Below, in pieces: positions 3,484-63,047 of a DNA stretch of 64,000 bases. The number at the start of each line of letters is the position of its first letter. Within the stretch, counting starts at the first letter, position 1. This DNA comes from an uncultured Chloroflexia bacterium. GTDB lineage: Bacteria > Chloroflexota > Limnocylindria > Limnocylindrales > CSP1-4. The stretch spans positions 352,001 to 416,000 of the forward strand of contig CAVPPB010000002.1 of the NCBI GenBank assembly GCA_963707215.1, read 5' to 3'. Both the position numbers and the translations under genes were made by a program. Below the pieces are notes generated by a model. The model made no database searches. It was not told the origin of the DNA and saw nothing but the letters and a program-made list of their open reading frames with translations.

Positions 3484-3530
3484 GGAGCGGACGCGACGAG
3501 CGACCCGTCGCCGCAGTGGGGTTCGAGACC

Positions 3531-3731
3531 ATGACGAAGCAGCAGAAGCCGATCGAACCGGACGACGCGGCCCCCCGCGTCGCCGAGGACGAGGACGACG
3601 TCGAAGGGCACAACATGATGCCGCTCGACCCGTCGTCTGCTCGCCATCTGGCGGGCGCGCGCGAGCGCGAGATCCGCAGCGACCTCGCCCGGCGCCAGCG
3701 CGAGCATGAGGCTCGACCGCACAAGCGCTGA
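3531..3731 (+). CDS. 66-aa small protein with acidic EDEDDVEGH motif (candidate precursor peptide)
   Basis: ORF followed by terminator; DVEGH motif shared with ORFs at 6938-7423 and 15587-16300. Confidence 0.75.
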   Translation: MTKQQKPIEPDDAAPRVAEDEDDVEGHNMMPLDPSSARHLAGAREREIRSDLARRQREHEARPHKR

Positions 3732-4347: not shown

Positions 4348-4402
4348 GACTCGCGGGCCGGTCCGTTCGTTTGCCTCGGGCCCGGCGGCAGGAGAGGTTG
4401 GC

Positions 4403-5104
4403 ATGTCGGAGGACGACGGCTTCGCGCTGGAGGCGCTCCGCCGGTGCGCGCTCTTCGCCCAGGCCGACGAGGCGACGCTCCGTTCCTGCGCAGCCCAGCT
4501 GCGGACGAGACGCTTCCGCCGCGGCGAGACCATCTTCCACCAGGGCGATCCGGGAGACTCGCTGTTCATCATCCAGGACGGCTCGGTCAAGATCGTCCTC
4601 CCGTCACCCGAGGGCGAGGAGGCAGCCATCATCGCGACCCTGGGTCGCGGCGACTTCTTCGGTGAGCTGGCGCTCCTCGATGGGGCCTACCGCTCGGCCA
4701 CGGCCGTCGCGGTCGAGGCGTCCGAGACGCTGGTGCTGCGGCGAGAGCCGTTCGCCGCCCTCATCGACAGTGACCCCGGCCTGCGCCACGCGCTCCTGGC
4801 TGGTCTCGCAGCCGAACTGCGGCGCCTGACCGGTCACGTCGAGGAGCTCCACTTCCTGGACCTGCCAGGCCGGCTCGCGAGCCGGCTCGTCCGGATGGCC
4901 CAGGAACAGGACCCGGCTGCCAGCGGCGAGGTCGTGCTCGCCTGGCCGTTCACCCAGTCGGAGCTGGCCGCCATGATCGGGGGGACGCGGCAGACCGTGA
5001 ACCGGCTGCTCGCCGACCTGGTCGCCCAGGACCTCATCCGGTTCGAGCCCGACCGGCTGGTCATCACGGACCTCGAGCGCCTCTCCCGGGCGGCCGAGCG
5101 TTGA
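4403..5104 (+). CDS. Crp/Fnr family transcriptional regulator
   Basis: GGAGAGG RBS; cNMP domain (IFHQGDPG, GDFFGELALL, RSATAVA) and HTH TQSELAAMIGGTRQTVNR. Confidence 0.95.
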   Translation: MSEDDGFALEALRRCALFAQADEATLRSCAAQLRTRRFRRGETIFHQGDPGDSLFIIQDGSVKIVLPSPEGEEAAIIATLGRGDFFGELALLDGAYRSATAVAVEASETLVLRREPFAALIDSDPGLRHALLAGLAAELRRLTGHVEELHFLDLPGRLASRLVRMAQEQDPAASGEVVLAWPFTQSELAAMIGGTRQTVNRLLADLVAQDLIRFEPDRLVITDLERLSRAAER

Positions 5105-5132: not shown

Positions 5133-5939
5133 ATGACGAGCCAGGGCCCGCCAGAAGCCTCCGACCTCGAGCGCGCCCTCGAGGCACTCCGGGCGGTGGC
5201 CCTCAGGGCCGAGGCTGCCCGGCGGCTCGAGCTCGGGAGCGGCGAGGCCGTCCTGCGGTCGGTCGTGGAGGCGGCCGTCTCCCTCTTCGACGCCGAGGCC
5301 GCGTCGATCGCGCTCTACGACCCGAGCGCGGATCGGCTGGTGTTCCTGGTCGCCGCCGGCGACCAGGGCCAGGGCGTCGTTGGCCTGTCGATCGGGCCCG
5401 ATCAGGGTCTCGTCGGCTACGTGTTCCAGACCGGTCAGCCGCTGGCCCTGTCGGATGTCCAGCGGGACCCCAGATTCGGGCGCTCCTTCGCCGAGAAGAC
5501 GGCCTACATCCCCCGGTCGATCGTCGCGGTGCCGCTCCTTGACGAGCAGGGCACCGTCGGGGTCCTCGAGGTCCTCGACAAGCGCGACGCGACGGCCTTC
5601 AGCCTGCGCGACATCGAGCTCACCTCGGTCTTCGCCCGCCAGGCGGCCGTCGCCATCCGCTCATCGCGGGTGGAGCGTGAGTCTGCCCTCCTCCTGGAGG
5701 AGGTGCTCCGGGCGACCCTCGGCGACCAGGTCGACGACCGGACCGTCGATGTCCTGGTGGCCGCGGCCGTCGATGATCTCGCCCGCGACGACACGGGAGC
5801 CCTCTGGGCGCTCGTCGAGCAGGTCGCCCGGGTCCGCCGGGCCGATCCGGATCAGCTCGCCCTCGTCACGGACCTGCTCGCCGTGCTGGCCGATCACGCC
5901 GGGCGCGGCCGAGCCGGTCGCCGGGCCCGTCGCGCCTGA
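5133..5939 (+). CDS. stand-alone GAF domain protein
   Basis: GAF pattern (EAASIALYD, GLVGYVFQTGQPL, DPRF, SIVAVPL, GVLEVLDK, FSLRDIEL); helical tail, no kinase or cyclase domain. Confidence 0.9.
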   Translation: MTSQGPPEASDLERALEALRAVALRAEAARRLELGSGEAVLRSVVEAAVSLFDAEAASIALYDPSADRLVFLVAAGDQGQGVVGLSIGPDQGLVGYVFQTGQPLALSDVQRDPRFGRSFAEKTAYIPRSIVAVPLLDEQGTVGVLEVLDKRDATAFSLRDIELTSVFARQAAVAIRSSRVERESALLLEEVLRATLGDQVDDRTVDVLVAAAVDDLARDDTGALWALVEQVARVRRADPDQLALVTDLLAVLADHAGRGRAGRRARRA

Positions 5940-5945
5940 GCCGCG

Positions 5946-6783
5946 ATGACCGACGAGGCGCTCCTGCCCGCCTGGAGCGAGCCGTTCGCCGGCGAGCGAC
6001 GGACCAGGCTGAGCCACCTGCCGCCATTCGGACGGCTCGGGCGCGACTGGGCCTGGGGAGGGTCCGACGGCAGCGGCTGCACGGTCGCGATCATCGACTC
6101 GGGGATCGAGCCCGATCACCCCGACGTCGGCGGTCGGTTGCTCCGGAGCGTCGTCGTCGAGCTCGACGCGGAGGGCGAGCCGGTCGTCCGCGACGACCCC
6201 GAGGCTCGCGACGTCGTGGGACACGGCACGGCCTGCGCCGGGATCGTCCATGCGCTTGCCCCGGGGGCGGACATCCTGTCCATCCGCGTGCTCGGCCCCG
6301 ACAACCGCGGCAAGGGCGCGGTCTTCGCCGCCGGCCTGGACTGGGCGATCGAGGCCGGTGCCAGCGTCGTCAACCTGAGCCTGTCGTCGAAGAGCGAGGC
6401 CCTGTTCGGGGTCTTCCACGACCTCGCCGATCGGGCCTACTTTGCGAACACTCTGCTGGTCTCGGCCGCCAACAACTACCCGGGTGCGTCGTACCCGTCG
6501 CTCTTCGCCGCGGTGGTCTCGGTCGCCGCCCACGATCTCGCCGATCCGGCCGTCTACCTCTACAACCCGGATCCGCCCGTCGAGTTCGGAGCCCACGGCG
6601 TCGACGTCGAGGTCGCCTGGCGGGGCGGTACGCCGGATGGTCGCCACGGGCAACAGCTTCGCGGCCCCGCACATCGCCGGGTACGCGGCGCTGATCCGTT
6701 CCAAGCACCCGGAGGCGTCCCCGTTCGAGGTGAAGGCGATCCTCGCGGCGACCGCCGACAACGCCCGCGCCCCGGTCGGCTGA
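5946..6783 (+). CDS. compact cytoplasmic S8 subtilase; +1 frameshift near 6633
   Basis: Catalytic Asp VAIIDSGI and His GHGTACAG in frame 5946; Ser motif TGNSFAAPHIAG in the next frame ending 6783; no signal peptide or prodomain. Confidence 0.88.
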
Positions 6784-6937
6784 TCAGCACCTGACCGGTC
6801 GGCCGAGGCGGACCCGGGACACGCGTCGCCGCCCGCCGGATCCGACGCTGGGCCGGGGGCGGGCGGCGGTGCTGAGGAACGGGAGCCGGGTCGTGGGAGC
6901 GAGGCCCGGCGGGACCCGTCCGATCAGGTGGTCGGTC

Positions 6938-7423
6938 TCACTCCCCGCTGTTCCGGGCAGTCCGGAAGCCGTGGCCCTCGACGTCGTCGTCCTCGGTGGC
7001 CTTCGGCACTGCGCCCTCGCGCGGGATCCCCGCCTCGCGCGGCACCCCTGCCTCACGGGGCAATCCGGCCTCGCGGGGCTGGCCGAAGCCGTGGCCCTCG
7101 ACGTCGTCTTCGGTCGGGACGGCGCCCTCGCGCGGGATGCCCGCCTCGCGCGGGATGCCCGCCTCGCGCGGGATGCCCGCCTCGCGCGGCACCCCTGCCT
7201 CACGGGGCAATCCGGCCTCGCGGGGCTGGCCGAAGCCGTGGCCCTCGACGTCCTCGTCACCGGTGGCCCGGGGGACGGCGCCTTCGCGCGGGATCCCCGC
7301 CTCGCGCGGCACCCCGGCCTCACGGGGCAATCCGGCCTCGCGGGGCTGGCCGAAGCCGTGGCCCTCGACGTCCTCGTCGTCGGACTCCCGCGTACGCATG
7401 AAGCCCTCGTTCTCGTTGACCAT
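6938..7423 (-). CDS. multi-cassette repeat protein: 4x DVEGHGF separating xPREAG hexapeptide arrays (candidate polyprotein precursor)
   Basis: GGAGG RBS just upstream of ATG (7430-7434); repeats in frame; DVEGH motif shared with two other ORFs. Confidence 0.8.
   Translation of the reverse strand: MVNENEGFMRTRESDDEDVEGHGFGQPREAGLPREAGVPREAGIPREGAVPRATGDEDVEGHGFGQPREAGLPREAGVPREAGIPREAGIPREAGIPREGAVPTEDDVEGHGFGQPREAGLPREAGVPREAGIPREGAVPKATEDDDVEGHGFRTARNSGE
6965..7380. repeat. nested tandem repeat: 18-bp units within three ~120-150-bp cassettes
   Basis: Recurring gaagccgtggccctcgacgtc and gcctcgcgcgggatgccc-like units. Confidence 0.95.
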
Positions 7424-7478
7424 GTCGTTCCTCCGCTGGGAGCCGGTCGGCGGGCCGATCGCCCGCGGCTACCAGGGC

Positions 7479-7544
7479 AGACTACCGTGCGTGTCGAGAC
7501 TCGGCGTAGCGGCGTGGTGACCGCTCCGCTGTCGCCGAGCCGAC
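7479..7544 (-). promoter_or_regulatory. shared upstream element + putative -10
   Basis: Minus strand GTCGGCTCGGCGACAGCGGAGCGGTCA (7544-7518), then TAGTCT at 7484-7479 (33-nt gap). Confidence 0.55.
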
Positions 7545-7565
7545 ACCGCAGGCGACGGCACCGAC

Positions 7566-9242
7566 CTAGGGACGGCGGACGCCCGGTCCCCGATACAACT
7601 CCATGAGGCGGACCGACAGGCCAGGTCCGGCACCCACGAGCGCGAGGAAGTCGGAGCCGTCGAGGACGAGGAGTCGGCCCTCGGACAGGGCGGTCACGGT
7701 CGCGGTCCGGGGCGTCTCGCGGAGCAGGCCGAGCTCGCCGAAGACTCGGTCCGGGCCGAGCTCCCGGAGTCGCACCGGCTGCCCGTCGGCGTCCGCCTGG
7801 TCCACGGCGAACCGGCCATCCTCGATGACGTAGAAGCGGTCGGCCGGCTCGCCCTCCCGCACGACGACCTGGCCGGCCGCGACCGTCAGGGGCTCGAGGC
7901 GGGCGACGGCCGCCTCCATGGCCGCCGGGGGCACGCCTGCGAAGAGCGGAAGGCCGGCGACCCGCCGCAGCGTCGCCGACGGCCCATCCGGGGCCATACT
8001 CAGGTCAGGGCCGACGAGCGCGACGGCGACGACCGCGGCGACCACGACCGCCGCACCGGTCGCAGCGAGGACCGGCAGCGGCCCGAGGCTGTCGGCCAGC
8101 ACCGGGACCACCAGCGAGCCCGCGGCGTACGCCAGCGTGGAGACGGTCAGGATCCCGCCGAGGGCCCGTCCGCGGATGGCATCCGGGACGAGCCGTTGGA
8201 AGACGGTCGTCCCGACGACCTCGACGATCAGGCTGCCGGTCGCCGTCGCGGCCATCGCCACGAGGGCGAGCGCGACGATGTCGGCCGCCCCGAGTACGGC
8301 GAGCCCGATGCCCAGCAGCACCGCCCCACCGAGGAGCGGCCCGGCGAGCGACGGACGGAGCACGAGTGCGCCGCTGCCGACCGCGCCGATGAGCCCGCCC
8401 ACCCCGATCGCCGCATTGAGGTAGCCGGTCACCTCCTCGCCGGCCCCGAGCTGGTCGCTCGCCAGCAGGACCGTCAGGACGCCCAGCCCGCCGAACGCGA
8501 ACCCGCCCACGACGTCGAGCGTGCCCAGCCCGATCAAGGGGCGCAGGACGGGCCGGAGCAGCGAGGCAGCGGTCTCGGACGGGGCATCGTTCTTGGCTGG
8601 GGCGTCGCCACCGGGCGCGGGCGTCCCGGCGTCGTCGCGGCTGACCGTGCCCTTCGATGACGGCAGCGTCCAGAGGACGATCGCGACGATCCCGAACGTG
8701 ATCGCGTTGAGGATGAACGCCAGTCCCAGGTCGGCGACCGCCAGCAGCAGCCCGGCCAGGCCCGGTCCGACGATGAAGGCCAGGTTGTCGAGCCCGGCCC
8801 AGGCGCTGTTGGCCGGCCCGAGCTCGCGCTCGTCGCGGACCAGGGTCGGCAGGTAGGACCCGATGGCCGGCCCGAAGAACGCCGAGAAGCAGGTCGCCAC
8901 GATGGCCACGAGGACGATCCCGACGAGGGGACCGTCTGTGAGGACCAGCCAGGCCAGGACCACCATGCAGAGGCCCCGCGCGAGGTCGGTCGTGAAGAGC
9001 ACGAGCCGGCGGTCGAAGCGGTCGGCGGCCAGCCCGGCCGGTAGCGAGAGGACCACGTAGGGCAGCACCCGGGCGGCCCCGACGAGACCGAGAAGGAAGG
9101 CGTCGTTGCTCTCGCGGTAGACGACGACGAGCAGGGCGACGAGGTAGAGCCAGTCGCCGATCGACGAGACGAACTCGCCGGCCAGGAGCCGTGTCACCGG
9201 TCGGTTCGACAGCAGCGCGCGGTAGGTCGCCATCGCGCCCAT
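7566..9242 (-). CDS. MFS transporter with C-terminal cyclic-nucleotide-binding domain
   Basis: About 12 TM segments, GLAADRFDRR motif A; C-terminal VVVREGEPADRFYVIEDG...FGELGLL...RTATVTA; start approximate. Confidence 0.92.
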   Translation of the reverse strand: MGAMATYRALLSNRPVTRLLAGEFVSSIGDWLYLVALLVVVYRESNDAFLLGLVGAARVLPYVVLSLPAGLAADRFDRRLVLFTTDLARGLCMVVLAWLVLTDGPLVGIVLVAIVATCFSAFFGPAIGSYLPTLVRDERELGPANSAWAGLDNLAFIVGPGLAGLLLAVADLGLAFILNAITFGIVAIVLWTLPSSKGTVSRDDAGTPAPGGDAPAKNDAPSETAASLLRPVLRPLIGLGTLDVVGGFAFGGLGVLTVLLASDQLGAGEEVTGYLNAAIGVGGLIGAVGSGALVLRPSLAGPLLGGAVLLGIGLAVLGAADIVALALVAMAATATGSLIVEVVGTTVFQRLVPDAIRGRALGGILTVSTLAYAAGSLVVPVLADSLGPLPVLAATGAAVVVAAVVAVALVGPDLSMAPDGPSATLRRVAGLPLFAGVPPAAMEAAVARLEPLTVAAGQVVVREGEPADRFYVIEDGRFAVDQADADGQPVRLRELGPDRVFGELGLLRETPRTATVTALSEGRLLVLDGSDFLALVGAGPGLSVRLMELYRGPGVRRP

Positions 9243-9433
9243 CGCTACGGCGCCCACGTCCGCGTGCTCGACCCCTCCGCCATCGGGGGAGTGTACGGCT
9301 CGTCCCGCCGCTCGCGCCGGTCGTCGGGGTGCGGACAGGACCATCGAAGGGTGGTCTGCGCTCCGGGCGGCGGGCAGGCTAGCGAGGTCGTCGGCGCGAC
9401 CGCGTCTGGGTCAAGGAAAGCGGGAGGCTCCCC

Positions 9434-12050
9434 ATCAACGTTCGCCGAGCGCTGCTCGCAGCGCTGCTCCTCGTCGTCGTGTCCACGGGAGGGACCTCGG
9501 CCGCCGAGCCGGTCCCGTCACCCGCAGCATCCAGCCCACCCGTCGAACCGAGCGTGTCCCCGCTCCCGCCCGACCCTGTCGTCGCCGCTCCCGAGGTCGA
9601 GCAAGTCCCGGCAGCCGCCGGACCCGTCGGCGCGCCCGACGTCGCAGCCGAGCCACTCTCGGCCAGGGGCCGGTACATCGTCCTGCTTCGCGACGGCTCG
9701 ACCTCCGCGCTGGCGAGCTCGCTCGGTCGTCGCTGGGGGTTCCAGCCCGATCGCGTGTTCAGCCGGGCGGTCCGGGGCTTCTCGGCGACGCTGCCGGACG
9801 CGGTCCGCGACCGCCTCGCCCGCGACCCGGACGTCGCAGCGGTGATCCCCGACGAGGTCATCGAGCTCGCCTGGGTGCGCCCGACCGGGATCCGCAGGGT
9901 CAACGCCCCGAGCTCGCCGCTCGCCGACATCGACGCCATCGACGACGCCCGGGTCGATGCCGACATCGCGATCGTGGATACCGGGATCGATCGGACCCAC
10001 CCTGACCTCGACGTCGTCGGCGGCATCAACTGCTCGACGAGCGATCCGAACGCCTGGCGTGACGTGCACGGCCACGGGACCCACGTCGCCGGCACGGCCG
10101 CGGCCATCGACAAGTCGAGCGGGGTCGTCGGCGTCGCCCCCGGCGCCCGGCTGTGGGCGGTCAAGATCCTCAACGACCAGGGCGACGGCCTGCTGTCCTG
10201 GTACGTCTGCGGGCTCGACTGGATCGCCGCCCAGCGCGACCCGTCCGACCCTGACCGGCCGCTCTTCGAAGCGGTCAACATGAGCGTCACCAAATCGGGG
10301 AGCGACGACCAGGCCTGCGGGGACCGCAACGGCGACATCCTCCACCAGGCCATCTGCCGGCTCGTCGGCAGCGGGGTCACCGTCGTCGCGGCGGCCGCCA
10401 ACGACAGCAAGGACGCCGCACTGCGCGTGCCGGCCTCGTACGACGAGGTCATCACGGTCTCGGCGCTGGCCGACATGGACGGGCTCCCCGGCGGGAAGGG
10501 GCCCCAGCTCTGCGGCTCGTACGACGCCGACGACACGTTCGCCGACTTCTCGAACTACGGCGCCGACGTCGACATCATCGCGCCCGGCAAGTGCATCTGG
10601 TCGACCCTCCGGGGGAACCGCTACGGCTACTCGTCGGGGACATCGATGGCGGCACCGCACGTCACCGGCGCCGTCGCCCTGTACAAGGCGTCCCGACCGG
10701 AGGCCACTCCGGCCGAGATCAAGGAGGCCCTGCGGTTCCTGGGGACCTCGGATTGGAAGACCTGGACGGATCCGGATCCCTGGCACGAGCCGCTCCTCGA
10801 CGTGTCACGGCTCGGCCCCCTGGGATCGTTCTCGATGGCTGTCCTGCCCGAGTCCTCCGGCACCGGCGGTGATGACAGCGCCGAGACGACGGTCACCGCC
10901 ACGGTCGCCCTCGTCCGATCGACCACCTTCTTCGAGCCGGTGTCCCTGGCGGCCGAGACGCCCGACGGCATCACCGCGACATTCGACAAGCCGCGCCTCA
11001 TGGGCTTCGGGGTCACCGGGACGACCATGACCCTGACCGCCGCTCCCGGCATCGACCCCGCCGAGATCCCGGTGACGATCCGGGCGACCTACAAGGACAT
11101 CGTCCGGACCACGACCCTGACCCTCGACGTCGAGCCAGCCGCGGTCCGCCTCGCCGGGGCCGACCGCTACGCGACCGCCGCGGCGATCAGCGCGGCCTCC
11201 TTCGGCCCGGGGGTCGCCGTCGCCTACGTGGCCACCGGGGCGAACTTCCCCGACGCCCTCGCCGGCAGCGCCGCCGCCGGCAGCGCCGGGGCCCCGGTCC
11301 TGCTCGTCACGAGGGACACCATCCCGACCGCCACCGCGACCGAGCTCGGCCGCCTCAAGCCGGGTCGGATCGTCGTCCTCGGCGGCGCCTCCGTCGTGAC
11401 CGACGCGGTCAAGGCGGCCCTCGCGCGGTACACCGCCGGCTCGGTCAGCCGCCTCGCCGGGGCCGACCGCTACGCGACCGCCGCGGCGATCAGCGCGGCC
11501 TCCTTCGGCCCGGGGGTCGCCGTCGCCTACGTGGCCACCGGGGCGAACTTCCCCGACGCCCTCGCCGGCAGCGCCGCCGCCGGCAGCGCCGGGGCCCCGG
11601 TCCTGCTCGTCACGAGGGACACCATCCCGACCGCCACCGCGACCGAGCTCGGCCGCCTCAAGCCCGCTCGGATCGTCGTCCTCGGCGGCGCCTCCGTCGT
11701 GACCGACGCGGTCAAGGCGGCCCTCGCGCGGTACACCGCCGGCTCGGTCAGCCGCCTCGCCGGGGCCGACCGCTACGCGACCGCCGCGGCGATCAGCGCG
11801 GCCTCCTTCGGCCCGGGGGTCGCCGTCGCCTACGTGGCCACCGGGGCGAACTTCCCCGACGCCCTCGCCGGCAGCGCCGCCGCCGGCAGCGCCGGGGCCC
11901 CGGTCCTGCTCGTCACGAGGGACACCATCCCGACCGCCACCGCGACCGAGCTCGGCCGCCTCAAGCCCGCTCGGATCGTCGTCCTCGGCGGCGACCGGCG
12001 TCGTGACCGACGCGGTCAAGGCGGCCCTCGCGCGGTACACCAGGCCGTAG
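9434..12050 (+). CDS. secreted S8 subtilase with inhibitor-I9-like prodomain and three cell-wall-binding-2 (CWB2)-like repeats; +1 frameshift near 11993
   Basis: IAIVDTGI, GHGTHVAG, SGTSMAAPHV triad; repeats RLAGADRYATA...FPDAL...PVLL...VVLGG; signal peptide if started at ATC 9434; last repeat completes at TAG 12050 in the shifted frame. Confidence 0.85.
11147..12041 (+). repeat. three near-identical 303-bp tandem repeats (CWB2-like domains)
   Basis: Unit start cgcctcgccggggccgaccgctac at 11147, 11450 and 11753. Confidence 0.95.
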
Positions 12051-12065
12051 GCCTGGCTGGACCCC

Positions 12066-12719
12066 TCAGCCGCCCTCCCCGGGCATCGCCAGGGCGGCAG
12101 TCGGCAGGACCGTGCCCTCGAGCGAGAGCAGCTCTCGCTTGAGCTCGAGGAGCTCCTCGCGGGTCCCGAACCAGGACCCGCCGTAGCCACCGAGCGTCCC
12201 ATCGCCGGCGATGACCCGGTGGCAGGGCACGATCAGGCCGATCGGGTTCCGGCCGACGGCCCCGCCGGTCGCCCGGGCGGCCCCGTGTGCACCGATCGCC
12301 GTCGCGACCCGTCCATAGCTGGTCACGCGACCCCACGGGACGCTCCGGACGGCCTCGAGCACCCGGCGGTCCCAGGCGGATAGCCCCCGCAGGTCGATGG
12401 GCAACGACAGCCTCTCGGGCTCCCCTGCCCAGAAGCGGTCCAGGTGTCGCGCGAGCCGGTCGATCAGGGCTCGTCGGGCCGCTCCGGCACGACGGCCTGC
12501 GATCGGATCACGGTGCGTCCGCCGCACCAGGTGAGATGCGAAGGCATCGTCGGTCGATCGGAGCTCGAGCGCCACGACGGCCTGCGTGGTGACGGCCAAC
12601 CGCACGGGGCCCAGGGGACCGTCGAGGACCGCGATCGCGGTCGTCGCCGCCCCGGCGGGCGCTTCCTGCGCACGGTCGACCAGCGCGGCCGTCGGGGGCT
12701 CGGTCTCGTCTCCCGGCAT
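12066..12719 (-). CDS. ogt: methylated-DNA--protein-cysteine S-methyltransferase
   Basis: [24 protein letters not shown], active site PCHRV, GGYGG. Confidence 0.93.
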
Positions 12720-12729
12720 GTCGCAAGTC

Positions 12730-12771
12730 TTGCCGTTCAGGACGGCCGACTGCTATACTCGGGGGGAGTAT
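12730..12771 (+). promoter_or_regulatory. copA promoter with CsoR-type operator
   Basis: TTGCCG-N18-TATACT; palindrome ATACTC-GGGGG-GAGTAT (12755-12771) with G-tract. Confidence 0.7.
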
Positions 12772-12773
12772 CG

Positions 12774-15497
12774 ATGGACATCACCACCGCGTCCCCGACC
12801 CCGCCAGCCGGCAGCGCACCGCTGGAAGTCCAGCTGCCCGTGGCCGGGATGACCTGCGCCTCGTGCGTCAACCGCATCGAGCGGTTCCTCAACAAGACCC
12901 CGGGGGTCGAGGAGGCGACGGTCAACCTCGCCACCGAGATGGCGACCATCCGGTACCTGCCGAACCTCGCGGGCCGCAGCGACCTCGTCGGCGCGATCGA
13001 GGCGGCTGGCTACGAGGTCAAGCCGTCGGCCCTCGTGGAGCCGGCCGCGGACGACGGGGCATCCGCCGCCGACGCGCTCGAGGCGGCCCAGGCGGCCGAG
13101 GAGGTCGAACGGGCGCGCGAGCTGCGCCTGATGCTGACCCAGTCGATCGTCGCCGTCGCCGTCGCCCTGGTCGCCATGGTCCTCATGTTCTGGCCGCAGA
13201 CGGTCGTCCCGATGGAGGAGCTCAACAAGCTCATCCTCTGGCCCGCCACGATCGTCCAGTTCTGGGCCGGCGGCCGTTTCTACCGGGCGGCCTGGCGAGC
13301 GCTCCGTCACGGCGGAGCCACGATGGACACCCTGGTCGTAGCCGGGACCAGCGCCGCCTGGGTCTACTCGGTCTTCGTCACCATGTGGCCCGAGGTCATC
13401 CACGCGGCGGGCCTGCACCCCGAGACCTACTTCGAGTCCTCGGCGATCATCATCGGCCTCGTCCTGCTGGGTCGCTGGCTCGAGCTGCGCGCCCGAGGCC
13501 AGACGACCGGCGCGATCCGACGCCTGATGGGTCTCCAGGCGACGACCGCCCGGCTCGTCCGCGGCGACGAAGAGGTCGACGTCCCACTCGCCCAGGTCGT
13601 GACCGGCGACCTGCTGCGGGTCCGCCCCGGCGACAAGGTCCCGGTGGACGGGGTGCTCGTCGAGGGCGGGTCGGCCGTCGACGAGTCGATGCTCACGGGC
13701 GAGGCCATCCCGGTGTCCAAGGCCATCGGCGACGAGGTCATCGGGGCGACCATCAACACGACCGGGTCGTTCGTCATGCGGGCGACCCGGGTCGGTCGCG
13801 AGACCGCCCTCGCCCGGATCGTCGAGATGGTCCAGCGTGCGCAGGGCTCCAAGGCCCCCATCCAGCGCCTCGCAGATCGGATCTCGGCCTGGTTCGTCCC
13901 GTTCGTCCTCATCGTCGGCGCCATCACCTTCGCCATCTGGTTCCTGGGTGGGCCGGAGCCCCGCCTGACCCTGGCGCTCACCGCCTTCATCGCGGTCGTC
14001 GTCATCGCCTGTCCGTGTGCCATGGGCCTCGCCACGCCCACCGCGATCATGGTCGGGACCGGCAAGGGGGCCGAGGCCGGCGTCCTGGTCCGTGGGGGCG
14101 AGGCGCTCGAGATCGCGCACAAGGTCGACGCCGTCCTGTTCGACAAGACCGGGACCCTGACCCTGGGCCGCCCGGCCGTGGCCGGGGTCGTCCCGGCCGA
14201 TGGCTGGTCGGCGGGCGAGATCCTGGACCTCGCCGCGTCGGCCGAGAAGGGCAGCGAGCACCCGCTGGCGGAAGCGATCGTCGCCAGAGCGCAGCAGGAT
14301 GAGCTCGGCTTCCGGGCCGTCGACGGGTTCGAGGCCGTTGCCGGTCACGGGGTGGTGGCGACGGTCGACGGCCGGCGCGTCCTGGTCGGCAACGCCCGGC
14401 TGCTTGCCGAGCACGCGGTCGCGATCGAGCGGCTGGAGGATGTCGCGGCGGCCGAGGCCGCGAACGGGCGCACCCCGGTCTTCGTCGCCGTCGACGGCCA
14501 GCCGGCCGGGGTCGTCACGATCGCCGATCCGGTCAAGGCCGAGTCCGCGCAGGCGATCCGGCAGCTCGCCGGCATGGCCGTCGACGCCTGGATGATCACC
14601 GGCGACCGGCGGACGACGGCCGAGGCGGTCGCCCGCCAGGTCGGCATCCCCTCGGACCGGGTGCTCGCGGAGGTCCTGCCCGGCGACAAGGCCGCAGCGG
14701 TCGAGCGTCTCCAGGCCGAGGGCCGGACGGTCGCGATGGTCGGTGACGGGATCAACGACGCGCCCGCGCTCGCGCAGGCCGACCTCGGCATCGCCATCGG
14801 CACCGGGGCGGACGTCGCGATCGAGGCGTCGGATATCACGCTCGTCGGCGGCGATCCCCGTGGGGTCGTCTCGGGCCTGGTCCTCTCCCGGCGGACGATG
14901 CGGGTGATCCGCCAGAACCTCTTCTGGGCGTTCGCCTACAACGTCCTGCTCATCCCGGTGGCGATGGGCGCCCTGTACCCGACCTTCGGGATCACCCTCG
15001 CGCCGGCGATGGCGGCCGGAGCGATGGCCCTCTCGTCGGTGTCGGTGGTCACGAACTCGCTCCGGCTGCGCTCGGTCCGCATCCGCCCGGACGAGGTCCG
15101 CGCGGAGGGGCGGGGCCTGGGCGCGCGGATCGCGGACGCATCCTTCCTGGCGGTCATCGCCCTCCTCGCCGGCGGGCTGGTGGCCGGGGTCATCGCTGCC
15201 GACCGGGCCGTCGCGGCCGGGTCGACCCAGGTCGACCTGGTGGCCCGGGACGTCGCCTTCTCGACCGACGAGATCCGGGTCCGGGCCGGCGAGCTGTTCA
15301 CCGTGACGCTGGTCAACGAGGACCCGGTCCTCCATGACTGGATGGTCGAGGGTGTTGCCAACGTCGAGGTCATCGCCAGGCCCGGCGCCACGGCGAGCGA
15401 CCGGTTCGTCATCGACCAGCCCGGGACCTACGAGTTCATCTGCTCGTACGAGGGCCACGCCGAGGCCGGCATGGTCGGGATGCTCATCGTCGAGTAG
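12774..15497 (+). CDS. copA: Cu(I)-translocating P1B-type ATPase with C-terminal cupredoxin domain
   Basis: [33 protein letters not shown] and MALSS motifs; tail with H...[11 protein letters not shown]. Confidence 0.95.
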
Positions 15498-15586: not shown

Positions 15587-16300
15587 CTACTGGGCCCGAG
15601 GCTCCCCGGGGCGCCCGACCATGTCGTCGGCGGCGTCCTTCGGAGCCAGCGGCCCCGCCGGCCCGCCATCTCGGTCGCGGACGGCGGGGTTGGCCGAGTC
15701 CGGGGCCTGCACGGCCGTCCGGCTGACCGCCTCGTCCGGGGTGGCATCGCGGACCATCGGATCGACCCAGGCCGGAGCCGGCGGTGTCTTCGCCAGGTCG
15801 CCGGCCCGGATCTCCGCGGCCAAGCCCGGCGCCACGGCGGGGGCGGGGATCGCCCGCGACCCCGCGAGGTCTCCGCCCGCGATCTCGGCGGCAAGGCCGG
15901 GTGCCATGTCAGGGACCGGGATGGACGCGGCCTGCGTCTGGCTACCGGCGGTCGGGGCTGTCAGATCAGAGACCAGCATCGAGGTCGTCGCTGCCCCAAC
16001 AACGATGACACCGGCGATCCCCGCCGCCAGGAGCTTGCGCTGCAGGTCGCGGGCCGCCTCGGCGTTCGGCAGCCGCAGCGAGAGGGCGTGGCCCTCGACG
16101 TCGTCCTCATCGAACAGTCGCAGGGTGACGGTCGTGGACAGGCCGTGGCCCTCGACGTCGGCGCTCTCGTCTGCCGCGATCCGCATCTTGTTGCCGGCAT
16201 AACCGGTCGCGAGGAGATCACGGAGCTGCCCGCTGATCGCCCCCTCGATCGCCCCTTCGACCTCTGTCCCGTCCGCGAGCTTCAGTCGCAGCGCGCTCAT
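15587..16300 (-). CDS. single-TM membrane protein with two DVEGH motifs before the TM and duplicated APGLAAEIxxGDLA repeat after it
   Basis: GAGGTG RBS before ATG 16300; SADVEGHG and DEDDVEGHA; TM LLAAGIAGVIVVGAA. Confidence 0.75.
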   Translation of the reverse strand: MSALRLKLADGTEVEGAIEGAISGQLRDLLATGYAGNKMRIAADESADVEGHGLSTTVTLRLFDEDDVEGHALSLRLPNAEAARDLQRKLLAAGIAGVIVVGAATTSMLVSDLTAPTAGSQTQAASIPVPDMAPGLAAEIAGGDLAGSRAIPAPAVAPGLAAEIRAGDLAKTPPAPAWVDPMVRDATPDEAVSRTAVQAPDSANPAVRDRDGGPAGPLAPKDAADDMVGRPGEPRAQ

Positions 16301-16346
16301 CTCCAGCCACCTCATGGTCGGGTCGCCTGTCGTCCCGTGCCCCAGC

Positions 16347-16411
16347 ACTCTAGGCGCGACGCAGGCCTACGACCAGTCCTCCAGCGACATGGCGCCTGTC
16401 GTCTGGCTGAC
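16347..16411 (-). promoter_or_regulatory. shared upstream element + putative -10
   Basis: Minus strand GTCAGCCAGACGACAGGCGCCATGTCG (16411-16385), then TAGAGT at 16352-16347 (32-nt gap). Confidence 0.55.
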
Positions 16412-62196: not shown

Positions 62197-63047
62197 GCAG
62201 CGTCGCGACGGCCGGCGTCCGCCGGGCCCATCCCCCCTCACCGCGCCCCGGCCAGGGCCTCCGCGACGCCATCGAGAACGCACTGCCGGCGATCGTCTCC
62301 CTGGGCGTCGGTGCGATCCTGTGGGAGGTCGCGGCCCGGGTCTGGGACGTCGCCTTCTTCCCGCCGCTCTCGGTCGTTCTTGGCCGCCTCGTGGAGATGA
62401 TCGGGGACGGGCTGATCATCGAGAGCCTTGCCAACAGCCTCCTGAACCTTGCCCTCGGCTTCGGCTTCTCGGTCGTCGTCGGCGTCGGGATCGGGATGCT
62501 GATGGGCGCCTACCGCCGGGTCGACATGGCCCTCGACGTCTACGTCTACGCGTTGCTGACGGCCCCGTCCCTCGTCTTCGCGCCGATCCTGCTGGCCGTG
62601 TTCGGGATCGATGGGATCCGCTTCGCGGTCATCGGGGTCATCGTCCTGTACTCGATCTTCATCATCATCGTGAACACGACGGCAGCGATCAAGGGAACGT
62701 CGCCGGCGCTCATCGAGATGGGGCGCGCCTACTGTGCCACCGACCGCCAGCTCTTCCGCCGGATCATCCTGCCGGCTGCGCTGCCGCTCATCTTCGCGGG
62801 GTTGCGGCTCGGGATGGCCCGGGCGGTGAAGGGGATGATCAACGGCGAGATGTTCATCGCGGTCGTCGGCCTGGGGGCCGTCGTCCAGAACTCCGGCAAG
62901 CGCTTCGACGCCGCGTCCGTGCTCGCCGTCCTCATCGTGATCATCGTCGTGGCGATGGTCCTCGTGAAGCTCGTCCAGCTCCTTGACGCGCGGGCCACCA
63001 GCTGGCTCCCGTCCACCGCCCGGACGCGGCGCAGGCGCGGCACGTGA
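62193..63047 (+). CDS. ABC transporter permease (TauC/SsuC-like)
   Basis: FPPLS, LIEMGRAYCA, LPAALP. Confidence 0.9.
   Translation: MSSVATAGVRRAHPPSPRPGQGLRDAIENALPAIVSLGVGAILWEVAARVWDVAFFPPLSVVLGRLVEMIGDGLIIESLANSLLNLALGFGFSVVVGVGIGMLMGAYRRVDMALDVYVYALLTAPSLVFAPILLAVFGIDGIRFAVIGVIVLYSIFIIIVNTTAAIKGTSPALIEMGRAYCATDRQLFRRIILPAALPLIFAGLRLGMARAVKGMINGEMFIAVVGLGAVVQNSGKRFDAASVLAVLIVIIVVAMVLVKLVQLLDARATSWLPSTARTRRRRGT

Follow-up and report, generated by a model that had tools for sequence, protein, structure and literature searches.

The DNA under study is a 64,000-nucleotide (nt) stretch, hereafter the window, of contig CAVPPB010000002.1 from an uncultured Chloroflexia bacterium, the genome of which amounts to 3.26 Mb with a GC content of 72% and is 85% complete. 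The subject of the analysis is a gene on the minus strand at positions 6938–7423 that encodes a repeat protein of 161 amino acids (aa), termed type B, in which the pentapeptide DVEGH alternates with repetitive cassettes. A first-pass annotation had described here a 161-aa open reading frame (ORF) with a ribosome-binding site, holding three PREAG cassettes (of 3, 5 and 3 units plus one PREGA each), four DVEGH motifs and a terminal GFRTARNSGE, and converging on a gene for a subtilase of the S8 family, and all of these elements were recovered (the S8 gene lies at 5946–6783 on the plus strand). The protein starts with a leader of 17 residues (MVNENEGFMRTRESDDE), continues with three cassettes, each built as DVEGH-GFGQ-(PREAG-L/V/I)n-PREGA-VP... 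with n equal to 3, 5 and 3, and finishes with the fourth DVEGH and its tail. The features of the gene are as follows:

6938..7423, minus strand: type B DVEGH-cassette protein of 161 aa (identified from the ORF, its codon-position GC and syntenic homologues in genomes G001, G022 and G023)
7430..7434, minus strand: Shine-Dalgarno sequence GGAGG, 6 nt 5' of the ATG (sequence inspection)
7358..7372, minus strand: DVEGH motif 1 (DNA pattern)
7238..7252, minus strand: DVEGH motif 2 (DNA pattern)
7091..7105, minus strand: DVEGH motif 3 (DNA pattern)
6971..6985, minus strand: DVEGH motif 4, ahead of GFRTARNSGE (DNA pattern)
7126..7226, minus strand: array of the 18-bp (PREAG-x) unit in cassette 2 (Tandem Repeats Finder)

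The 18-bp unit had been proposed to have expanded within the second cassette, and Tandem Repeats Finder indeed places 3.6 copies of it at 100% identity at 7126–7189, in addition to a cassette period of 120 bp at 97% identity. Contigs assembled from short reads do not bridge 7100–7230, so the repeat copy number is given as assembled, and parts of the stretch are without cover in some runs. A degenerate DNA pattern for DVEGH matches the window eight times against an expectation of 0.01, a count reached by none of 100 shuffles. Four of these matches fall in the type B ORF, one in 3516–3731 and two in 15587–16348, the eighth (at 62526) being an off-frame chance match in a permease gene.

Judged from its sequence, 6938–7423 is a genuine protein-coding gene. 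Its GC content at the three codon positions (0.83/0.54/0.91) is like that of the flanking genes for a GAF-domain protein, the S8 subtilase and a major facilitator superfamily (MFS) transporter, a profile that is absent from the four alternative open frames overlapping it. Across related loci the codons of the motif vary (GAG 274 and GAA 117; GGC 311, GGT 45, GGG 26 and GGA 9; CAC 327 and CAT 64), and because the motif is kept through this synonymous variation, selection acts on the peptide. A 204-nt contig from a metatranscriptome library, which spans 6887–7090 with nine differences, constitutes the sole RNA hint, and a promoter and terminator scan of 6700–7700 returned no sites. The encoded protein is 35% charged, with a net charge of -16 and 16% hydrophobic residues, and its single-sequence AlphaFold2 model displays no secondary structure, with a predicted local distance difference test (pLDDT) value of 55 and a predicted template modelling score of 0.10. 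These properties are consistent with an intrinsically disordered protein, a single-sequence model being weak evidence when taken alone.

Type B is one of three DVEGH architectures, and acidic-DVEGH ORFs in the source genome are located solely within this window, as types A, B and C. The two further types had not been mentioned in the first-pass annotation, nor had the conservation of the C-terminal tail of type B that is described below. Their positions are:

3516..3731, plus strand: type A DVEGH protein of 71 aa, with one DVEGH and then a conserved basic tail of about 40 aa (ORF, pattern and tail profile)
15587..16348, minus strand: type C DVEGH protein, with an N-terminal domain bearing two DVEGH loops and then a transmembrane helix (AlphaFold2, pLDDT 64)

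To place these proteins in a wider context, loci were anchored on the partner protease: an alignment of three intact S8 orthologues served as the query and identified 541 relatives, the best 80 of which were taken further. Of these loci, 79 are labelled as Chloroflexota or as Candidatus Limnocylindrales/-ia metagenome-assembled genomes and one is labelled Saccharimonadales. An ORF with at least two motifs is present in 67 of the 80, and regular expressions detected a type A tail in 62 loci and a type B tail in 24, 20 loci having the two together. The DVEGH copy number ranges from 1 to 14. From 407 motif instances (307 contexts unique per locus), a logo was derived in which position -2 is E or D in 92% and position -1 is D or E in 91%, followed by D, V (84%) or T (15%), E, G and H. 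Directly past the His the information content drops to approximately 1 bit, and small residues predominate at +1 (G 31%, S 20%, A 7%). The constant element across genomes is thus [ED][DE]D[VT]EGH, and the cassette sequences vary.

This division is most apparent among the syntenic type B homologues of G001, G022 and G023, which retain DVEGH and a ...GE terminus but have cores that are unrelated between genomes (PREAG; HKAGPEGATRKASPEGNLPRATGG; SKPRATEGI). Further cores elsewhere include KPRATEGIS, PEGATRKAS, GGPKRSAIP and many others. The comparative expectation of the earlier annotation, a conserved DVEGH with variable cores, was therefore borne out, the cores of related genomes being wholly different. 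The C-terminal tail of type B is likewise conserved, ending in ..S[RK]GE in 22 of 24 tails and in GD in the other two. When the motif is masked, types A and B have cassette 5-mers in common in 9 of 20 genomes, as opposed to 21 of 380 between-genome pairs, which suggests that cassettes are exchanged or homogenised within genomes.

Type A, the commonest form of the family, consists of a variable N-terminus and one DDVEGH ahead of a basic, helical tail that is conserved (..MMPLDPSSARHLAGAREREIR..PHKR); its members in other genomes have as many as 14 cassettes. When 63 type A tails were combined into a profile, 313 cluster representatives were retrieved from 1.84 billion proteins (104 at E<=1e-10), and the best 150 of these 313 are 37–235 aa long, none being fused to a larger domain. 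Type C is a membrane-anchored protein with a small beta/alpha domain that bears the motif loops (..DDVEGHALSLRLPNAEAARDLQRKLLA and a transmembrane segment). Of 25 relatives, 7 have conserved it, and in a family labelled f3 it directly adjoins S8; the segment that follows its motif is similar to the first part of the type A tail. In the model of its N-terminal part (pLDDT 64), motif 1 lies in a low-confidence loop and motif 2 in a loop that enters a strand.

Further variants were noted among the loci. In L080, L081, L084, L086 and L077 (at about 6860–7350, minus strand) a subtype downstream of S8 follows the scheme M..KK[IF][RQ]LPKE...ID..DVEGHG....P..GGE, with an acidic tail at its end and the G-G-E internal and not C-terminal. 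Loci L103 (6357–6920), L135 (4617–4877) and L139 (5809–6039), which belong to a distant family labelled f16, carry cassettes rich in His (KHTHHGAPKHVHHGAP; DVEGHHHHGMGKR; DVEGHRLHHGHH), which sets them apart from the window's class. Long arrays upstream of a Crp-type regulator are split over two to three frames in L018, L023, L032, L033, L049, L057, L069 and L083; since these splits are probably indel errors in repeat assembly, the corresponding copy numbers are minimum values.

No Pfam or NCBIfam family was found for types A and B of the window, and six relatives and 12 distant members produced sub-threshold noise only; the only names encountered for DVEGH proteins are 'hypothetical protein'. 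A word-indexed protein search with the whole type B ORF gave no match, its low-complexity words having probably swamped the query, and a less repetitive type B member retrieved only five proteins. The genome search with the type B ORF found matches in 13 of 41 genomes, and of eight loci fetched, four were true arrays (the window's own, G001, G022 and G023) and four were low-complexity chance matches; an array in G006 was confirmed through the DVEGH pattern. Among feature look-alikes of type B in the ESM Atlas are two clusters, with 80 and 427 members, of proteins that are 87 aa long and come mainly from Actinomycetota. All unnamed clusters scored 0.85–0.88 (the Actinomycetota pair 0.87–0.88), below the lead threshold of 0.9, and the Actinomycetota clusters may represent DTEGH-type repeat proteins outside the Chloroflexota.

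Throughout the family the DVEGH genes are associated with the same set of neighbours, which in the window are:

5946..6783, plus strand: propeptide-less S8 subtilase (PF00082 on both pieces, orthologue alignment)
5133..5939, plus strand: GAF-domain protein, directly upstream of S8 (Pfam GAF, E=2.7e-21)
4400..5104, plus strand: Crp/Fnr-type regulator with cyclic-nucleotide (cNMP)-binding and helix-turn-helix domains, start approximate (Pfam)
7566..9344, minus strand: MFS_3 transporter fused to a cNMP-binding domain, 142 nt upstream of type B (Pfam)

Neighbouring genes were counted on the 57 full-length loci of the S8-anchored set. The Crp regulator, the GAF protein and S8 were each present in 57/57, the MFS_3 transporter in 46/57, an M24 peptidase in 41–44/57 and, within the fetched flank, a heavy-metal P-type ATPase in 29/57 (all of the window's own class). 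A hidden Markov model (HMM) search placed a DVEGH ORF beside S8 in 74 of the 80 loci; in four of the six HMM-negative loci a short ORF in convergent orientation contains one DVEGH plus an internal ...GGE, in L088 a DTEGH ORF lies upstream, and L082 has none.

The linkage was also approached from the motif. A strict DDVEGH DNA pattern, run on 301 genomes sampled across the phylum, was found in 50 (13 for the reversed control), and 45 places were fetched with flanks of about 6 kb, leaving out six that share a G156 18-mer, G280 and G319 (own family), G225:C625, G121:C124, G134 and G125. ORFs with at least two motifs were carried by 13 of the 45, and 12 of these 13 have S8, GAF and Crp in the same stretch, the thirteenth (L128) starting at a contig end and showing Crp only. 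In L123 all three genes are present and the ORFs are single-motif, and in the remaining 31 loci a single motif occurs in unrelated contexts, S8, GAF and Crp all being absent. The positive loci belong to f3 (S8 62–67% identical to that of L043) and to f16 (48–50%), in which the gene order differs, the array being located directly after Crp. In these 13 f3/f16 loci the ATPase and the M24 peptidase were each found in 0/13 and the MFS gene in 8/13. The type A tail profile, which was applied to about 22 first-look candidates per genome so that the count is a floor, matched at least 2 of the 301 genomes, a low number that results partly from the differing f3/f16 tails and from the absence of the module in many genomes.

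The S8 orthologue is patchily distributed, occurring in 49 of 121 genomes of the class (f1 14/35, f3 34/40, f2 0/5 and f69 0/39), one f3 match being in the unpublished genome G386. Among genomes sampled both ways, the DDVEGH pattern occurs in 11 of 15 S8-positive and in 0 of 15 S8-negative ones, although related genomes are not independent. Crp-GAF-S8(-MFS/cNMP) is a conserved, accessory module of Chloroflexota. PADLOC returned generic 'subtilase' and cNMP-binding matches and none for the DVEGH proteins or the GAF protein; a known anti-phage defence system was rejected, there being no system-specific match. The DVEGH motif and the module are absent from Pfam, NCBIfam and PADLOC, a full-text literature search on 'DVEGH' returned unrelated papers only, and no description of the module was found in the main texts of the literature on multicore precursors with subtilisin, on QhpE, or on precursor peptides and repeats of Limnocylindria/Chloroflexota.

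The protease of this module is small and, as predicted from its sequence, cytoplasmic: it consists of a bare catalytic domain of approximately 270 aa in which neither a hydrophobic N-terminus or signal peptide nor an I9 propeptide is present. Its catalytic triad (D51, H93 and S237) is invariant across 48 orthologues. In the window an extra base near 6632 splits the gene into frames 5946–6794 and 6442–6783, which match PF00082 with E=8.6e-20 and 4.7e-09, respectively, and alignment to the intact orthologues of L009 and L010 positions this base before the catalytic Ser. Contigs of two estuary-metagenome runs (X1 and X2, about 95% identical) have one letter fewer at 6632 and no frameshift, and those of the near-identical run X4 do not reach the site; the frameshift reflects either a lesion or pseudogene particular to this strain or a mistake in the assembly. 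Among solved structures, subtilisin BPN' is the closest (E ~2e-30), followed by intracellular serine proteases (ISPs; 7y6m and 7xr8, ~1e-24), and the nearest NCBIfam models are QhpE (NF049966), at 81.7 bits against a cut-off of 165, and then mycosin. Two near-invariant residues among the 48 orthologues, R121 and K123, align with positions that we take to be Ser101 and Gln103 of BPN', presumably on the strand of the cleft that pairs with substrate P3–P4, and these could plausibly complement the Glu of the substrate as well as its Asp run. The catalytic-His motif of S8 (D-V-V-G-H-G-T, at about 6200–6225), preceded by an acidic stretch (DDPEA.DVVGHG), resembles the substrate sequence DD-D-V-E-G-H-G; this likeness may be coincidence, D..GHGT being general in subtilases.

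A complex between S8 and the C-terminal 37 residues of type B (alignments of 48 and 24 rows, respectively) was predicted alongside three controls and scored 0.36, the best control scoring 0.00, for a verdict of 'weak support'. Of 80 solved complexes, 58 attained the mark concerned, as did 2 of 110 mismatches; only 7 of the 80, but both mismatches, did so at 0.60 or under. At least 80% of the contacts are common to the runs, and the partner has a pLDDT of 47. Since many subtilisin-peptide complexes are solved, the pass may reflect memory or likeness and not binding.

Starting from what is established, namely the gene, its family, the conservation of the motif against hypervariable cores and the genomic linkage to S8, GAF and Crp, we infer cleavage, the cut register, regulation and export as follows. 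Type B is a dedicated partner of the adjacent S8 and most probably its substrate, and our favoured interpretation, to which a probability of roughly 0.45 is assigned, holds that the DVEGH arrays are polyprotein-like substrates that S8 cuts after the His. Recognition by the protease would involve D-[V/T]-E-G-H together with the acidic run, with Val/Thr at P4, Glu at P3, Gly at P2 and His at P1, and each cut would free a variable cassette as a peptide ending in ...DVEGH, the same cuts freeing the conserved C-terminal tail (GFRTARNSGE in this case). Expression, proteolysis or export would be gated by the three cyclic-nucleotide/GAF sensor modules, with the MFS transporter as a possible exporter of the products. 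This interpretation is favoured because of the exclusive linkage to S8, the conservation that ends at the His, the small +1 residue and the basic cleft; a one-sided conservation of this kind is what would be expected of non-prime-side recognition by a subtilase. Precedents are available in QhpE, a co-encoded cytoplasmic subtilase (PMC7876137), and in the S8 cleavage of cyanobactin precursors as described in PMC10885120.

Several points weigh against cleavage by S8. The window's own S8 gene is frameshifted, so the proposed protease may be dead in this strain, and the hint of transcription from the 204-nt RNA-library contig, the only one available, could derive from DNA carry-over. The alignment reveals no acidic residue in the S1 pocket of S8, and His at P1 is unusual among subtilisin-like enzymes. 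The complex prediction amounts to weak support, and the entry of type C motif 2 into a beta-strand, as modelled, would fit a binding or structural motif at least equally well. The linkage extends equally to the GAF protein and to Crp, either of which could read the motif in place of S8. Lastly, we know of no MFS transporter that exports peptides of 16–49 residues.

In the most probable of the alternatives, rated unlikely though worthy of serious consideration and in part already raised by the first-pass annotation (as a multivalent decoy or scaffold for a DVEGH reader), the proteins would be uncleaved multivalent scaffolds, decoys or regulators, DVEGH being a short linear binding motif, the cassettes disordered spacers and the copy number a means of tuning valency. 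The reader of the motif would then be S8 (with the array as pseudo-substrate or inhibitor), the GAF protein or another partner. The evidence from linkage is identical for binding and for cleavage, the complex score (0.36 against 0.00) is equally compatible with binding without cutting, and the motif of type C is located in loops of a folded, membrane-anchored domain. Furthermore, the low complexity and hydrophilicity of the cassettes and their freedom to drift are what spacers would show, and the range of 1 to 14 copies agrees with variable valency. Conversely, the near-identity of the cassettes within a protein and the sharing between types A and B (9/20 against 21/380) exceed what spacers need, albeit that such homogenisation could stem from repeat slippage or gene conversion alone, and the abrupt end of conservation at the His is typical of protease sites.

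The Asp/Glu run and the His could alternatively chelate Cu, Zn or Ni, which would make these disordered proteins metal buffers, chaperones or sensors, a proposal that appears improbable. It draws on the invariant His with three to five acidic residues alongside, on the His-rich nature of some f16 arrays (KHTHHGAPKHVHHGAP..., DVEGHHHHGMGKR) and on the position of type C next to the heavy-metal P-type ATPase (12444–15497, with HMA and cupredoxin domains), the counterpart of which was recorded above in 29/57 flanks of the own class. However, the ATPase is near 0/13 of the f3/f16 modules, which indicates that its synteny is lineage-specific, and a copper link as a general feature was rejected on this ground. 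Most cassettes, moreover, hold a single His per 14–49 residues, and chelation leaves the strict Val/Thr and Gly and the invariable S8-GAF-Crp linkage unexplained.

A bolder version of the polyprotein interpretation, which we likewise regard as improbable, envisages bacterial prohormone-like processing, in which a cNMP-gated, intracellular GAF-S8 convertase would cut at DVEGH to yield numerous copies of lineage-specific peptides and the MFS-cNMP protein would export them. The peptides would diversify rapidly through repeat turnover and gene conversion between paralogues, and if this were true each Chloroflexota lineage would signal or recognise its kin in a peptide 'dialect' of its own.

The first-pass annotation had compared the layout to precursors of peptides that are made by the ribosome and modified after translation (RiPPs) or to prohormones. 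The general part of that comparison stands: the layout fits an alternation of recognition site, variable core and recognition site because DVEGH is kept, the cores vary and the S8 link spans families. A true multi-core RiPP precursor, the modifying enzyme of which would be encoded elsewhere or among unannotated neighbours, is a very improbable extension of it. Conserved flanks, hypervariable cores and an adjacent S8 do reproduce the layout of cyanobactin precursors, and the site after which PatA-like S8 proteases are described to cleave, G(L/V)E(A/P)S (PMC10885120), resembles D-V-E-G-H in its L/V-E-small pattern. Nevertheless, neither YcaO, radical SAM, LanM and ATP-grasp proteins nor other modifying enzymes were found among the conserved neighbours (the YcaO heterocyclase/macrocyclase was sought among the scanned ORFs, which did not include every small ORF), so that a RiPP in the strict sense is unsupported; additionally, the cores of the window lack Cys and are poor in Ser/Thr, and the PatA/PatG model (TIGR03895) matches S8 with E=0.065 and 12 bits against a cut-off of 421. 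That the frame is not a gene at all, having been produced by a GC-rich tandem repeat, can practically be dismissed, for although four further frames are open over the same interval, Pfam and NCBIfam are silent and the word-indexed protein search was empty, the codon-position GC is correct in the type B frame only, a ribosome-binding site is present, the synteny is conserved and the in-frame DVEGH is kept with synonymous variation across genera although the DNA repeats differ.

The logic of a repeat precursor combined with an S8 protease is already known from cyanobactins and from kexin-processed repeats of fungi and yeast; what is not known from these is the motif, the bare S8 predicted to be cytoplasmic, the GAF/Crp/cNMP context and the three architectures of presumed substrates. 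As in the cyanobactin system of PatE with PatA/PatG, several hypervariable cores lie between conserved recognition sequences and a subtilase is co-encoded, a multi-core layout that was seen in the window, in 67/80 loci and in the motif logo. The DVEGH module differs in being without a heterocyclase, macrocyclase or prenyltransferase and in having Crp, GAF and MFS genes as neighbours, and its cores are of 9–44 residues (spacing 14–49), hydrophilic and low-complexity as opposed to the Cys/Ser/Thr-rich cores of 6–8 residues in cyanobactins. In Kex2-type repeat precursors, such as the alpha-factor of yeast and the dikaritins of fungi, tandem peptides lie between sites for an S8 convertase and vary in copy number between strains. 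The Kex2-processed epichloecyclin precursor (gigA/kexB) is one such example (PMC10540207). Tandem peptide copies separated by a short conserved site are common to both, but the Kex2 systems employ a secretory signal peptide, dibasic KR sites and kexins with a P-domain, whereas the DVEGH module has an acidic site ending in His and a bacterial cytoplasmic subtilase, and type B has no hydrophobic N-terminus or signal peptide, the sites between its repeats being acidic-DVEGH and not KR.

Closest to S8 among the NCBIfam models, QhpE, the subtilisin-like leader peptidase of quinohemoprotein amine dehydrogenase, is described as a small, propeptide-less cytoplasmic subtilase co-encoded with a single dedicated peptide substrate (PMC7876137). 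It resembles S8 in size, in the missing propeptide and in its place beside a presumed substrate, the differences being that the QhpE substrate is not a repeat protein and that no qhp genes, radical SAM enzyme or ABC exporter lie near the DVEGH module. The Bacillus ISPs similarly have a subtilase core without a secretion signal or classical I9 propeptide, although subtilisin BPN' scores better against S8 than they do. The invariant N-terminal LPAWSEPF of S8 is, as we take it, reminiscent of the autoinhibitory LIPY/F motif of ISPs; these are to our knowledge general proteases, for which we know of no link to a repeat substrate or to GAF/Crp genes. Finally, Pup and UBact are small disordered proteins that end in G-[EQ], and type B ends in ..SGE (GE in 22/24 tails), with the difference that the DVEGH proteins are linked to a protease and not to a ligase or proteasome. 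A Pup-like tag was rejected as no ligase was found in the genome: both the Pup ligase/Dop (PF03136), which was detected in a control genome, and Pup (PF05639) gave 0 matches in the 85% complete source genome (G000).

Should S8 cut at DVEGH, a peptide-producing system would be present in many uncultivated Chloroflexota of soil, sediment and freshwater, in which a precursor with variable cores between recognition sites is combined with cyclic-nucleotide sensors and a cytoplasmic subtilase of minimal build, none of the tailoring enzymes known from RiPPs being part of it. The system would provide a protease with an unusual and clean recognition sequence (acidic run-V-E-G-H), a potential tool, and a natural case of fast-evolving peptide libraries between fixed sites. 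Even if the proteins are not cut, a pentapeptide that is invariant in three unrelated protein contexts and always linked to three genes would constitute a well-defined short linear motif whose reader can be sought.

Beyond the module, the heavy-metal P-type ATPase gene (12444–15497, plus strand), the product of which has an HMA domain and a C-terminal cupredoxin-like domain, is convergent on type C. A second S8 subtilase (9479–12142, plus strand) is apparently secreted and combines an I9 inhibitor domain with three CWB2 cell-wall-binding repeats that are almost identical to one another; the third of these seems to enter an out-of-register Arg/Gly/Pro-rich tail, maybe by another frameshift.

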